Shown piece by piece: positions 27,001-30,000 of a stretch of 42,375 bases of DNA; positions within the stretch are counted from its first letter, which is position 1; every line of letters begins with the position of its first letter. The stretch lies in IMG/VR virus record IMGVR_UViG_2802429217_000003, one strand, 5' to 3'. The stretch is from a virus. Its lineage: Duplodnaviria; Heunggongvirae; Uroviricota; Caudoviricetes. Made by a program: the position numbers.

Positions 27001-30000
27001 GAAGAAGACACCCTGCATACCAATGGGGGTGACAAATGATTCCGTATTCGAAAGTCGAGTCTTTGGCTGCGTGCCGGATGACCGCACAACAAATCGCTGA
27101 TGTTCTGGATGTTGATCTGAACCGACTGAAAGAAAATCGGGAAGCAATGACAAATTTTTACGCATCCATCCGTAAGGGAAGAGCGAAAGGTGAAGCCGAG
27201 CTACGAGCCGCATTGTTTAAGCTTGCCAGAAAAGGGGATGCCTTTGCTCTGCGTGAGTTACTAAGGGTGGATAAAAATCAGGACTAACTGATGAACAGAC
27301 CGGACTGGGGGGCGTTGCAGCAGGAATATATTGCTGAATACACCCGTTCCGGTATATCTCCGGTTGCATGGTGTGAAGCAAGGGGACTGAATTACGCAAC
27401 AGCCCGTCGTTACATCAAAAAACCTCCGAAAAATGCGCAGACAGAAGTGCGCAAAACTGCGCAAAAAAGTGCGCAGAAAAAATCTGCGCAGACTGCGCAA
27501 AAGCGGAACAGAAAATCTCAGAAAAAAAAGACGGTATCCGATGCCTTCCTGATTAAGAGTGGCGCGGAGGAGATTTCATTCTGTCCCGATGAATTCGGCA
27601 TTTCTGACCAGCAGGCAAAATTCGCCATGCTGGTTGCCCAGGGTAAAAACCTTATCGATGCATACCGCCTGGCGGGTTACGAGGGGACGGGAAACGTAGC
27701 AAGTGCCGCAGCTTCCCGCCTGTTAAGAAATGTTAAGGTTTATCGGGCTATCTCATGGTTCCGCAATCAGTACCAGAAACGCTATACCGCAGACCTGGAT
27801 TTACTGGTGAGTCAGTTGATGGCCATTGTTCAGGCCGACCCCAATCAGTTGGCGCAATTTCGCCGTGTTAACTGCCGTTATTGCTGGGGCGAGAATCACC
27901 TCTACCAGTGGCGCGATATAGCAGAATTCGACAAGGCAGCGGCACAGGCCTCCAGAGATGGCAAACCTGAACCTGAGTATGGTGGCCTCGGGTTTGTTGA
28001 TAACGCCATACCCAATTCGGACTGCCCGAAGTGCTGCGGTGAGGGAACAGGGCAGCTTTATATGGCCGATACCACTCTGCTTGATGGGGATGTACGGCAA
28101 TTATATGCAGGGGCAAAGCTCGGAAAATTCGGTGTTGAGATCCTGCAGGAGAATAAAGCTGCCGCCCGGCGTGAATTGTTGCGTTTGCTTTCTGCTGGCG
28201 GGGCATTATGTGCAGATAAGCGGCTACAGGAACTGGAAATTGAGCGGCGCAGAATGGAAAACCAGAAGCTGCGCAAAGAGATCGAAACGGTGGAGGGTAA
28301 TGAACATCCCCTGCCTGTGGCGATCAATATTAATGTAGTTGATGCCAGGGTAAGGAGTGATGAAGATGATCTCTCCGACGCTTAATGTGCCTCAGGCGCG
28401 ATTTCTTTCCATGCCTCATAAATTTAAAGCCTATATTGCTGGTTTTGGCTCGGGCAAAACATGGGTGGGGTGTGGCGGCATATGCAAGGGGATTTGGGAG
28501 CATCCTGGTATAAATCAGGGATATTTTGCGCCAACGTATCCCCAAATTCGCGATATTTTTTACCCTACAGTGGAAGAAGTTGCTGCTGACTGGGGATTGA
28601 ACGTAAAAATTAATGAGGGAAATAAAGAGGTTCATTTTTATTACGGACGCCAGTATCGGGGAACCACCATCTGCAGATCGATGGAGAAGCCGCAAACGAT
28701 CGTCGGTTTCAAAATTGGTAATGCGCTGGTGGATGAACTGGACATTTTGCCGAAGGAAAAAGCCAGAACTGCGTGGCGCAAGATAATTGCGCGTATGCGT
28801 TATAAGGTTGATGGACTTCGCAACGGTATTGACGTTACAACCACGCCAGAAGGATTCAAATTTGTCTACGAGCAGTTTGTTAAAGCCGTGCGTGAAAAAA
28901 CAGAGTTGTCCTCACTGTATGGTCTGGTGCAGGCATCTACTTTCGATAATGAAAAGAACCTGCCAGCAGATTACATTCCTTCGCTTCTTGAATCATACCC
29001 TCCAGAGCTGATTAAAGCCTATCTTCGTGGACAGTTTACGAACCTGACAAGTGGTACTGTTTACCATCAGTTTGACCGGCAACTGAATAATTGCGAAGAA
29101 GTGGAGCAGCCTGGGGAGCCGATTTATATCGGGATGGATTTTAACGTTGGAAAGATGGCGGGGATCGTCCATGTGCTGCGTTTGGGTCTTCCATGTGCGG
29201 TAACTGAAATCATCAATGCCTACGATACGCCGGATATGATCCGTATCATTAAAGAACGCTTCTGGCTGTATGACGGAAATGATTACCGGAAGGTGAGAGA
29301 AATTTATATTTATCCTGATGCCTCCGGGGATTCCCGAAAATCAAATAATGCAAGTGCGACGGATATTGCTCAGCTTAAACAGGCCGGTTTTAACGTTGTG
29401 GTGAACAGTTCGAACCCGCCAGTAAAAGATCGCGTTAACTCAATGAATGCAATGTTCTGCAATGCCAATGGCGAGCGTCGCTATAAAGTTAATGTGAAGC
29501 GTTGTCCGGTATATGCCGAATCTCTGGAGCAACAGGTCTGGGATGATAAGGGGGAGCCTGATAAAAAATCTGGCAACGATCACCCGAATGATGCAGGAGG
29601 TTATTTCATCGTTAAACAATTCCCTATTGTCAAACCGACCGGAAGAGTCACATCACTTCGGATTTAATTATGGCTGATATATCAACACCCAACCTCGACT
29701 ATAACGATATGCTGGAGGCGTGGGATATTAACGACGCACTGATGGGCGGTACGCTTGAAATGCGCAGGCAGGGAGAAAATTATCTCCCAAAATGGCCTAA
29801 CGAAGATGAAGACGCTTATAAAAAACGCCTGTCCGTGGCTACGCTACTTCCTGTGTATGAAGAAAGCATTAAGCAAAATATTGGGCGCATATTTGCAGAG
29901 CCGACAGTATTGAGTGAGGAAACGCCGGAAAAAATCAGGGAATATGCAGAAAATATCGACATGGAGGGGAGCCGACTGGATGTGTGGGCGCAGCAATTTT

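Follow-up and report, generated by a model that had tools for sequence, protein, structure and literature searches.

The six TGCGCA hexamers clustered in the small-terminase gene (terS) of a Rac-like LT-II E. coli prophage probably constitute its pac recognition site, built on the plan of phage P1; we put the probability of this reading at roughly 75%. A pac or terminase recognition site was what the sequence-only reading had proposed here, and homology together with comparative genomics now supports it. The array is called pac because the N-terminal domain of TerS (N-domain), encoded directly before it, is homologous to P1 PacA, because the hexamers of pacA lie at the equivalent place, because the array is under selection as DNA, and because helix 3 of the N-domain and the repeat word co-vary in 205 distinct regions of relatives.

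The array and its genomic setting

The window, i.e. the whole 42,375-bp stretch of DNA that was analysed, contains 21 copies of TGCGCA according to a motif count, and 6 of these 21 fall within 66 bp (terS nt 144-209; Table 1). Their start-to-start spacings are 14, 10, 12, 15 and 9 bp, and the earlier description of the cluster proved exact. When 21 sites were placed at random 200,000 times, no 66 bp received more than 4; the chance expectation is about 1.9e-9 six-copy clusters. Neither exact nor 1-mismatch TGCGCA forms a second cluster within several hundred bp of the array, and 27400-27520 contains no GATC. The array starts 14 nt past the end of the N-domain coding region and occupies the first half of the linker coding region, where it encodes the peptide ...KNAQTEVRKTAQKSAQKKSAQTAQK.... 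The sequence-only reading described this linker correctly as rich in Lys, Ala and Gln; what it overlooked is the frame of copy 2 (27448), which is read as GTG CGC AAA (V-R-K), while the other five copies are read as xxT GCG CAR (x-A-Q). The full-length model gives the linker pLDDT values of about 42-58 from roughly aa 45 to aa 90.

Table 1. Coordinates of the array, the terminase genes and their parts in the window.
Feature	Position	Strand	Description and basis
83-aa ORF upstream of terS	27036-27287		Similarity to part of TerS family phrog_309
terS, small terminase, 364 aa	27291..28385	+	N-terminal extra domain, disordered linker, Terminase_2 body; ORF, Pfam, PHROG
N-domain coding region, 43 aa	27291..27419	+	Three-helix, HTH-like, MNRPDWGALQQEYIAEYTRSGISPVAWCEARGLNYATARRYIK; proposed array reader
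Helix 3, ATARRYIK (codons 36-43)	27396-27419	+
Linker coding region, aa 44-106	27420..27608	+	Lys/Ala/Gln-rich, predicted disordered; pLDDT and peptide
TGCGCA array	27434..27499	no strand	Proposed pac recognition site; six exact hexamers, A-rich spacers
TGCGCA copies	27434-27439, 27448-27453, 27458-27463, 27470-27475, 27485-27490, 27494-27499
Terminase_2 body, aa 107-316	27609..28238	+	Canonical TerS HTH (aa ~106-146) and oligomerisation region; Pfam
terL, large terminase, 436 aa	28357..29667	+	Overlaps end of terS; presumed nuclease/motor recruited to array; Terminase_6N and Terminase_6C

That the array lies inside a small-terminase gene is confirmed by the protein matches. TerS belongs to the Terminase_2 small terminases: Pfam Terminase_2 (PF03592) matches aa 107-316 with an E-value of 5.9e-7 (30.6 bits against a cut-off of 26.1), phrog_51 (terminase small subunit) matches with 1.8e-71, and terS is located directly upstream of terL. 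Helices are predicted at aa 106-116, 121-127 and 134-146, with pLDDT values of 74-84. In a PDB sequence search, aa 108-174 weakly match the small terminase structure of Pam5 (21di); beyond this weak match in the Terminase_2 part the search returned nothing for TerS, and no match for TerL. The Pfam domains of TerL are Terminase_6N (E 3.7e-33) and Terminase_6C, and the protein shares 43.5% identity with TerL from Jerseyvirus phage SeF1 (Se_F1), for which PhageTerm predicted headful/pac packaging (PMC9409062). The host element is a Rac-like, lambdoid, LT-II-encoding E. coli prophage, and this terS is found in 896/5426 complete E. coli genomes (~16%). E. coli D217-5 (NZ_CP076268) and 357900 (NZ_CP038859) are examples of strains in which the prophage is 99.8-99.9% identical.

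Two neighbours were considered as partners of the array and rejected. The 83-aa ORF upstream of terS is confined to the E. coli group and missing from 102/127 distinct array-bearing loci. TerL is no constant partner either; among array-bearing phages its families differ, those examined being of the Terminase_6 or Terminase_3 type.

Selection on the array at the DNA level

The array is under selection as DNA and is not a by-product of codon usage. Synonymous codon resampling of the same peptide gave a mean of 0.50 TGCGCA and a maximum of 5 in 200,000 trials, compared with the 6 observed. In relatives, A[Q/H] dipeptides are encoded as T-GCG-CA in 92% of cases within the linker as against 27% elsewhere in terS. 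Furthermore, the hexamer is used in three frames: of the 601 TGCGCA copies in 114 distinct R-type relatives, 457 encode xAQ/xAH, 119 encode [VLM]R[KTNS] and the remaining 25 encode CA[EKD]. The variant word TGCGAA of Pasteurella phage Pmp11 is likewise read as both Cys-Glu and Ala-Asn. The peptide varies between relatives and the DNA word is kept, and a codon-level origin in a KSAQ repeat, against which the sequence-only reading had cautioned, is rejected by the synonymous null and by the use of three frames. It is largely the DNA site that sets the Lys/Ala/Gln composition of the linker (AAA = Lys; GCG-CAR = Ala-Gln). The array sits in the coding segment of this linker, predicted to be disordered, where constraint on the protein is weakest.

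The related terminase genes, in which conservation of the array had been suggested as a check, retain it as DNA. Our sample was drawn from more than 587 confirmed N-domain loci in IMG/VR, of which the best 80 per scan were retrieved. Phages whose TerS is only 40% identical retain 5-7 TGCGCA at the same place; in Klebsiella phage 5 LV-2017 (TerS ~40% identical) there are six, in three frames, and window positions 27369-27503 are the only nucleotide-level match between the two terS genes. Across 143 R-type loci the density of TGCGCA is ~0.01 per 50 bp in the flanks, but 3.3 in the first 50-bp bin past the N-domain and 1.6 in the second. A subset of relatives (e.g. L001) has a secondary cluster ~150 bp downstream, at +200 to +300 nt. 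Relatives differ freely in how many hexamers they have and in the order and spacing of these, and within the E. coli group the proportion of polymorphic columns (hexamer 0.14, spacer 0.19) differs too little to be used.

At greater distance the association loosens. The N-domain TerS genes L398, L399 and L402 have no array within 2.5-3.6 kb; in L401 and L403 there are three copies only, located immediately upstream of terS. A defective terS fusion, Rac-SA53, has lost the N-domain, and 3/5 of its retained copies are mutated, which is about what its 14% divergence leads one to expect, so that no inference is drawn from it. A BLAST search for plasmids carrying the array as hitch-hikers gave no match, the low-complexity filter being able to hide such matches.

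Homology of the N-terminal domain to PacA

As judged from sequence comparison, the TerS N-domain and the N-terminal part of P1 PacA are homologues. The alignment of the N-domain with PacA aa ~3-41 has an hhalign probability of 91.9% (E 6.9e-7), and the pattern W...G......(WC/YA)....LN..TARRY is common to both. The PacA family phrog_1711, which PacA itself matches with an E-value of 4e-202, is also matched by the TerS of the window (1.7e-5), by the metagenomic relative L400 (1.2e-8) and by the Stx-type TerS (7e-7); PacA in turn matches phrog_370 (1.9e-4). AF2 predicts a three-helix domain whose fold neighbours are HTH DNA binders, and PacA aa 10-44 weakly match HTH_23/HTH_28. No Pfam family was found for the N-domain, and a protein homologue search with the 47-aa domain returned only truncated or frameshifted short proteins, which were used as alignment rows for the model.

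The P1 pacA gene carries the experimentally defined pac hexamer repeats TGATCA/G (PMC10028697). TGATCA occurs four times at nt 194-233, and TGATCG/TGATCA follow at nt 324-380; the annotated cleavage sites lie between these repeats, at nt 276-285. The defined site comprises seven hexamers (PMC10028697), and we count eight TGATCA/G in nt 194-380. Synonymous recoding of the pac hexamers cuts the P1 titre ~9-fold, and control by Dam methylation has been described for the site (PMC10028697). Besides this recoded P1 gene, pacA*, a synonymously recoded pac has been made in P22 (pac-wobble).

Co-variation of helix 3 and the repeat word

Our computational comparison demonstrates, at the level of sequence, that the repeat word and helix 3 change together and are exchanged by recombination as one cassette. 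In the 205 regions, RRYIK helices (n=139) go with a mean of 6.3 TGCGCA, KRYIK helices (n=32) with 5.75 TGCGAA/TTCGCA and 0.19 TGCGCA, and RTRIK helices (n=11, Stx2a phages) with 3.4 CGATCA, the word being CGATCAT. In the Stx2a phages four CGATCAT repeats occupy terS nt ~140-185. P1 (RRYLR) and L400 (RRYLQ) have 6 TGATCA each; in L400, whose helix is NTARRYLQ, these are six copies of GTGATCA, that is, of P1's word. The code is not strict, since RRYLK goes with TGCGCA while RRYLR/Q goes with TGATCA, and the helix AKRHIK of L397 breaks the pattern with 5 TGCGCA. A one-residue code (R39 = C at position 5 of the word, K39 = A) accounts for 181/181 close relatives, one R-type relative having no array, and was rejected in its strict form on account of the distant L397.

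The exchange is visible in pairs of relatives (L006/L078, L136/L139), which are 76-90% identical over nt 1-90 of terS, 23-66% over helix 3 and the array, and again 70-90% over the body. Three further pairs show an abrupt break in identity at codon ~34, and the same swap of helix 3 and array occurs within the Stx-phage lineage. Upstream genes and TerL families vary, and no element except helix 3 accompanies the array in every case. Helix 3 and the array are only ~15-30 bp apart, so their co-inheritance could partly reflect linkage and not co-adaptation.

A wider reading, to which we give even odds, is that the PacA-like recognition helix and the adjacent array form a portable 'packaging-specificity cassette' that recombination has moved between otherwise unrelated terminases. 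At least four matched versions would then exist (RRYIK/TGCGCA, KRYIK/TGCGAA, RTRIK/CGATCAT and RRYL[RQ]/TGATCA), spanning P1, Rac-like LT-II prophages, Stx2a phages, and phages of Klebsiella, Yersinia, Providencia, Pasteurella and Aeromonas.

Alternative explanations

The N-domain may bind the array for autoregulation of terS/terL, or to sequester TerS on its own gene, with pac elsewhere: a binding site inside the coding region of its own binder could stand in the way of transcription or translation, the mRNA structure predicted for the palindromic hexamers is very stable (-37.1 kcal/mol), and the copies of L401 and L403 just upstream of the gene start look operator-like. We consider this unlikely, because in P1 the homologous domain and repeats belong to a mapped pac with cleavage between the repeats (PMC10028697), P22, Sf6 and SPP1 likewise have pac within or beside terS (PMC9611059), and TerS is established as the subunit that recognises the DNA to be packaged (PMC13595956). 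Somewhat less probable still is that a host factor or another phage protein reads the array in place of the N-domain. P1 pac does need the host proteins IHF and HU as well (Skorupski et al. 1994, as cited in PMC10028697), and the 83-aa ORF resembles a TerS family in part. However, TGCGCA and TGCGAA arrays occur within the same host genera, namely Klebsiella (5 LV-2017 and RothC) and Providencia (L140 and PSTCR3), so a host factor cannot explain the switch of word, and the distribution of the ORF as well as the constancy of helix 3 alone beside varying upstream genes and TerL families speaks against a further phage protein.

Very improbable, in our view, is an action of the hexamers through nucleic-acid structure, whether as mRNA hairpins that tune terS translation or as recognised cruciform or single-strand structures. 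The array of the window folds far better than shuffled sequences (z -5.7) because its self-complementary copies pair 1-6, 2-3 and 4-5, and the TGCGAATTCGCA units of K-type arrays are 12-bp palindromes; but the Pmp11 array consists of 8 direct TGCGAA with no inverted copy and a z-score of +0.66 against shuffles, and the free variation of copy number, order and spacing means that no particular helix is conserved. Hardly tenable is the view that the array is a nucleotide shadow of the repetitive Lys/Ala/Gln linker, for instance of a charged peptide that binds DNA or serves as a spacer, without any function as DNA. Although 5/6 copies encode x-Ala-Gln in a region of low complexity as protein, six copies never arose in the synonymous null, the hexamer yields AQ, VRK/LRT and CAE peptides, and in Pmp11 the peptide differs where the word stays.

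Proposed mechanism

If the array is the pac site, helix 3 of each N-domain would read one hexamer, and a TerS oligomer could bind several hexamers at once with several N-domains. Each N-domain would be held on a flexible, lysine-rich tether of ~60 residues, an arrangement that would fit the irregular spacing of 7-16 bp, and many weak 6-bp contacts would sum to a specific mark of high avidity. The Terminase_2 body might then recruit TerL, which would cut nearby, and headful packaging would probably run the way terS is transcribed, as it does in P1.

Literature searches returned no reports of virion-end mapping, transduction or binding for phages with the N-domain and array module. Co-mentions of TGCGCA and terminase concerned herpesvirus terminase and Vibrio phage CRISPR, and searches for pac site, terS, repeats or hexanucleotide yielded work on P1, P22 and SPP1 only. 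No ends are mapped in the paper on Yersinia vB_YenM, and the vB_EcoS-xxxRx records are in-silico prophages. The E. coli LF82 prophage Gally, with a mapped coverage step in its terS, was rejected as a relative: its TerS is an unrelated 140-aa protein.

Significance

By what means pac-type small terminases select their own DNA is, according to the literature, still unclear and a matter of controversy (PMC9611059). The module described here would be a simpler, testable arrangement, a separate small HTH-like domain beside an array of presumed 6-bp sites, with natural specificity variants that differ in one or few helix residues and one or two repeat bases, and with P1 as an experimentally validated homologue. 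If the pac reading is true, it predicts pac, and with it where lateral and generalised transduction would begin and which way they would run, for a prophage type found in about one in six complete E. coli genomes; it would extend this prediction to Stx2a-converting phages and to many prophages of Klebsiella, Yersinia, Providencia, Pasteurella and Aeromonas. The phages concerned carry toxin genes (LT-II in the window). It would also suggest a route to engineered packaging specificity for phagemid delivery, for which P1 pac is already in use (PMC10028697). Should the cassette reading hold as well, the pac specificity of a large share of enterobacterial temperate phages would be readable from sequence, and the exchange of one helix and a ~70-bp array could reprogram it.

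Comparison with known packaging systems

As in phage lambda, repeated short sites lie near or in the small-terminase gene, and an N-terminal HTH is the reader, here a proposed one. The R-elements of lambda cosB lie by or in that gene and are read by the N-terminal (winged) HTH of gpNu1, and these sites bring the large subunit into place for the cut. As a cos phage, lambda has fixed cohesive ends; it carries three longer R elements and an IHF site upstream of Nu1. Neither Pfam nor PHROG gave a cross-match between the TerS of the window and Nu1.

With SPP1/SF6 (pacL-pacR, G1P) the window shares the family of the TerS body, Pfam Terminase_2. The SPP1-type TerS is not known to use any HTH but the canonical one of this domain, whereas the TerS of the window bears an extra N-terminal domain on a tether of its own, and its site is a plain array of hexamers. 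In SPP1/SF6, headful packaging involves multiple DNA contact points in or near terS (PMC9611059). P22, a headful enterobacterial phage, has its pac site within the coding sequence of terS, where the window has its proposed one; the P22 TerS belongs to a different type, and in place of an array P22 has a single asymmetric 22-bp site within gene 3 (PMC9611059; PMC11260489). In vitro, the small terminases of P22, Sf6, SF6 and SPP1 bind pac weakly or without specificity, and for the TerS of P22 such binding has not been demonstrated (PMC9611059).

In P1, as in the window, several palindromic TG..CA hexamers occupy the 5' part of the small-terminase gene, just past the region of the homologous HTH-like N-domain, and their numbers are similar (6 here, seven in the defined P1 site or eight as counted). 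Only this N-terminal module is common to both: the TerS body of the window is Terminase_2 and not PacA, its TerL is unrelated to PacB (BLASTP E 0.82), and the element is a lambdoid Rac-like prophage, whereas P1 is a plasmid prophage. The site itself differs from known P1-type pac in its word, TGCGCA instead of TGATCA/G, and in its single cluster, compared with the 4+3 repeats that flank the cut in P1, where an IHF site lies between the clusters. Because TGCGCA lacks GATC, it leaves no scope for Dam-methylation control of the P1 type; GATC-bearing words do occur among the relatives, in Stx2a phages (CGATCAT) and in L400 (GTGATCA).

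The TGCGCA array and its gene neighbourhood

Within the terS gene, which encodes the small terminase subunit, six exact copies of TGCGCA start at window positions 27434, 27448, 27458, 27470, 27485 and 27494, which confirms the array described in the sequence-only reading. The 42,375-base window holds 21 copies in total; when 21 sites were placed randomly, at most four fell within 66 bp (200,000 trials), and the number of six-copy clusters expected by chance is about 1.9e-9.

The A and B subunit genes of an LT-II enterotoxin, with the lysis genes on one side and the packaging genes on the other, characterize the window as an LT-II-converting Rac-like prophage. 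The E. coli strains matching it best are NZ_CP0762xx, and its terS is present in 896 of 5426 complete E. coli genomes. Directly upstream of the packaging genes, the ParB_N gene and the gene of a TET-associated glycosyltransferase (TAGT) overlap by 8 nt. This pair looks like a DNA base-modification module; no TET/JBP gene was seen among the window ORFs examined. According to the annotations looked at, the module is missing from array-bearing phages outside E. coli and is therefore not tied to the array. The 83-aa ORF preceding terS aligns to the middle part only of the 319-position small-terminase family phrog_309, and its product may be an accessory packaging factor; apart from one Superficieibacter prophage (L138), only the E. 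coli Rac-like group has homologues of this ORF.

Features of the window and of the pacA gene of phage P1
Feature	Position	Strand	Matches and remarks
LT-II enterotoxin A subunit (259 aa) and B subunit	23908-25042		A: Enterotoxin_a, E 1e-114; B: LT-IIB, E 1e-43
ParB_N-domain protein	25387-26175		Also phrog_498 (phage DNA-methyltransferase family), N-terminal part
TAGT	26168-27100		PF20691, E 4e-34
83-aa ORF	27036-27287		Overlaps TAGT gene end, stops 3 nt before terS; phrog_309, E 2.5e-22
terS, small terminase	27291-28385	+	Pfam Terminase_2, aa 107-316; phrog_51, E 1.8e-71; contains the array
Large terminase	28357-29667		Terminase_6N/6C; downstream of terS
Portal	29670-31076		Downstream of large terminase
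Mu-F-like head protein	31057-32172
P1 pacA, TGATCA x4	nt 194-233		P1 record
P1 pacA, IHF site	nt 256-268		P1 record
P1 pacA, annotated pac cleavage sites	nt 276-285		P1 record
P1 pacA, TGATCG/TGATCA copies	nt 324-380		P1 record

The N-terminal module of TerS and its relation to PacA

Structure prediction gives TerS residues 1-43 (MNRPDWGALQQEYIAEYTRSGISPVAWCEARGLNYATARRYIK; N-domain) three helices (6-20, 24-31 and 35-38+; pLDDT 78-90) and leaves the ~60 residues that follow, partly encoded by the array, disordered. Because the canonical Terminase_2 helix-turn-helix (HTH) starts only at about residue 106, the N-domain represents an extra module ahead of an ordinary TerS. In relatives, this module is joined to Terminase_2 bodies as well as to bodies without a Pfam match, and it adjoins differing families of the large subunit (TerL). 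Three proteins of 300-565 aa (P0056, P0110, P0140) consist of 5-7 tandem N-domain-like units with the pattern ..W..L..EQ..SGKS...WC.E.GI...TF..; by eye, the unit looks like a transposase-type HTH.

The N-terminus of PacA, the small terminase subunit of P1, aligns to the N-domain profile over W6-K44 (hhalign 91.9%, E 6.9e-7), and PacA residues 10-44 show weak HTH_23/HTH_28 matches. PacA defines phrog_1711 (E 4e-202), which matches the window TerS (1.7e-5), the metagenomic relative L400 (1.2e-8) and the Stx-type TerS (7e-7); phrog_370 is matched by PacA at 1.9e-4. The array adjoins a PacA-like domain. P1 pac comprises 161 bp inside pacA with seven TGATCA/G repeats bearing Dam sites, and synonymous recoding of these repeats lowers the P1 titre ~9-fold (PMC10028697). 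With a PacA-like domain and hexamers placed as in pacA, the window array corresponds in position to a pac site that was established by experiment.

Selection on the array as DNA

The array is under selection as DNA. The alternative, that it is a mere codon by-product of a KSAQ repeat, was tested and rejected on four results. If synonymous codons of the same 28-residue peptide are resampled by the window's own codon usage, a mean of 0.50 TGCGCA copies is obtained, and six were reached 0 times in 200,000 trials. The second copy in the window is read GTG CGC AAA (V-R-K) and the remaining five xxT GCG CAR (x-A-Q); among 114 distinct relatives, the frames are x-A-Q/H (457), [VLM]-R-x (119) and C-A-x (25), and T-GCG-CA encodes 92% of linker A[Q/H] dipeptides versus 27% in the rest of terS. 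Klebsiella phage 5 LV-2017 has a TerS with only ~40% identity to that of the window; the gene still contains six TGCGCA at the same position, with other spacings and in all three frames, and nucleotide-level similarity between the two genes is found only at window 27369-27503, i.e. helix 3 of the N-domain plus the array. Averaged over 143 loci, the density is ~0.01 copies per 50 bp in the flanks, and the first two 50-bp bins past the N-domain hold 3.3 and 1.6 copies per locus; some subgroups show a smaller bump at +200 to +300 nt.

The array transcript (window 27420-27515) has a predicted fold of -37.1 kcal/mol (z -5.7), in which copies 1 and 6, 2 and 3, and 4 and 5 pair, and which could affect terS translation. 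Such stability follows automatically from six self-complementary words, and a stable fold is absent (z +0.66) from the Pmp11 array, which has direct repeats only. The fold is probably a by-product.

Co-variation of helix 3 and the repeated word

Loci with the N-domain were taken from GenBank phages, IMG/VR, metagenome contigs and a set of one genome per species (Enterobacterales, Aeromonas, Vibrio, Psychromonas). In 205 distinct regions, the final five residues of helix 3 (ATARRYIK in the window) predict the word repeated within 280 nt downstream; helix and word co-vary. The code is not strict: L397 (AKRHIK) has five TGCGCA, and RRYLK pairs with TGCGCA, RRYLR/Q with TGATCA. Among the IMG/VR matches listed, the N-domain directly adjoins 73 of 120 stretches with three TGCGCA within ~30 bp. 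L401 and L403 possess three copies directly upstream of the terS gene, and no array was found within 2.5-3.6 kb around the genes of the distant N-domain members L398, L399 and L402.

Final residues of helix 3 and the word repeated downstream
Helix 3 end	n	Repeats
RRYIK	139	mean 6.3 TGCGCA
RRHIK	8	mean 4.9 TGCGCA
RRYLK	8	mean 6.75 TGCGCA
RRYVK	3	mean 4.3 TGCGCA
KRYIK	32	mean 5.75 TGCGAA/TTCGCA + 0.19 TGCGCA
RTRIK (Stx2a-converting phages)	11	mean 3.4 CGATCA(T); 12-bp period; GATC in every copy
RRYLR (P1)	1	6 TGATCA
RRYLQ (L400)	1	6 TGATCA

The E. coli group carries 4 to 6 copies. In its 91%-identical members (e.g. vB_EcoS-666R9, L002 4413-4418 and 4459-4464), two of six copies read TGTGCA and TGCACA, the same CpG C-to-T transition on either strand. 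Some relatives, e.g. Klebsiella phage 5 LV-2017 (L001 3270-3313, terS nt 348-391), have a second small cluster of 2-3 TGCGCA within the region coding for the Terminase_2 HTH, ~150 bp downstream from the main array. In Escherichia phage Rac-SA53 (L009 1417-2445), a deletion fused an upstream gene to terS (record note: 'gpOterS; fusion of two genes by deletion') and the N-domain was lost; TGCGCA is intact at only two of five retained hexamer positions.

The TerS genes of Stx2a-converting phages encode the same N-domain with the helix NTARTRIK (L405 1640-1690, Escherichia phage PhiR5_2; L407-L445). Past the N-domain, (A/C)TCGATCATGA, encoding IDHEIDHKTDHEIDH, recurs every 12 bp in 3-5 copies; these repeats are a candidate pac site. 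A more divergent family of ~200-aa TerS proteins (L371-L395, IMG/VR; e.g. L371 1201-1803) begins with 'DW.AIEADFRAG.LSNRQIAKKHGVAESTLRKRI', an N-terminal HTH with weak HTH_psq/HTH_AsnC matches, and has 4-7 TGCGCA(C) directly past it, read KVRT, TAHQ or PAH.

Cassette exchange

Up to about codon 34, otherwise homologous terS pairs share 76-100% DNA identity; over helix 3 and the array they diverge sharply. After the linker, the identity of the terS body returns to 70-90% in two pairs (L006/L078 and L136/L139); in L006/L140, L105/L096 and L123/L102, 96-100% DNA identity upstream of the junction is followed by unrelated sequence. The junction recurs at terS nt ~95-110, about codon 34 of the N-domain coding sequence, directly before helix 3, and phages of the Stx lineage show this swap among themselves too. 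This breakpoint pattern indicates that helix 3 and array are transmitted and swapped together, as a single cassette; they lie so close to each other that linkage alone could keep the pair together. Among the array-bearing loci compared, no other constant gene lies beside the array (the upstream 83-aa ORF was ruled out as the reader, as it is found in the E. coli group only), and TGCGCA and TGCGAA types are both found among phages sharing host genera, which speaks against a reader supplied by the host.

Proposed mechanism and comparison with phage P1

The PacA-like N-domain, the positional match to P1 pac and the co-variation of helix and word, i.e. homology and comparative genomics, support the earlier proposal that the array is a packaging site; we estimate a probability of about 0.75 that it is a pac site of the P1-type hexamer-repeat kind. 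Each N-domain would read one hexamer via helix 3, and in a TerS oligomer several N-domains would be carried by flexible, lysine-rich linkers, an arrangement that fits the variable spacing (modes 7, 9, 10, 12 and 14 bp) and copy number (3-10). Individually weak, five to ten such sites would together give specificity by avidity. The Terminase_2 body would recruit TerL for a nearby cut, from which headful packaging would begin; the headful mode is suggested by the Terminase_6 or Terminase_3 types of the partner TerLs examined and by a 43.5%-identical TerL in Jerseyvirus SeF1, headful by PhageTerm prediction. The array sits within the coding region of the linker, whose K/A/Q composition is therefore largely a consequence of the DNA site.

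More widely, the matched helix/repeat cassettes of P1, of Rac-like and Stx2a phages and of many other temperate phages appear to form one family, of which no description was found in the literature searched. They would offer a manageable way into the question of how pac sites are recognized, which is still open (PMC9611059). What is shared with P1 is the N-terminal module only, since the window encodes a TerS with a Terminase_2 body and a TerL unrelated to PacB. The Stx2a-phage repeats resemble P1 pac in having a Dam GATC site in each copy, and the second cluster of some relatives recalls the two-cluster pac of P1. In the window, however, the copies form one cluster, which is free of GATC, so the bipartite geometry and Dam control of P1 do not apply; the array would be a variant with another word, free of methylation sites, in the Terminase_2 TerS gene of a lambdoid toxin-carrying prophage.
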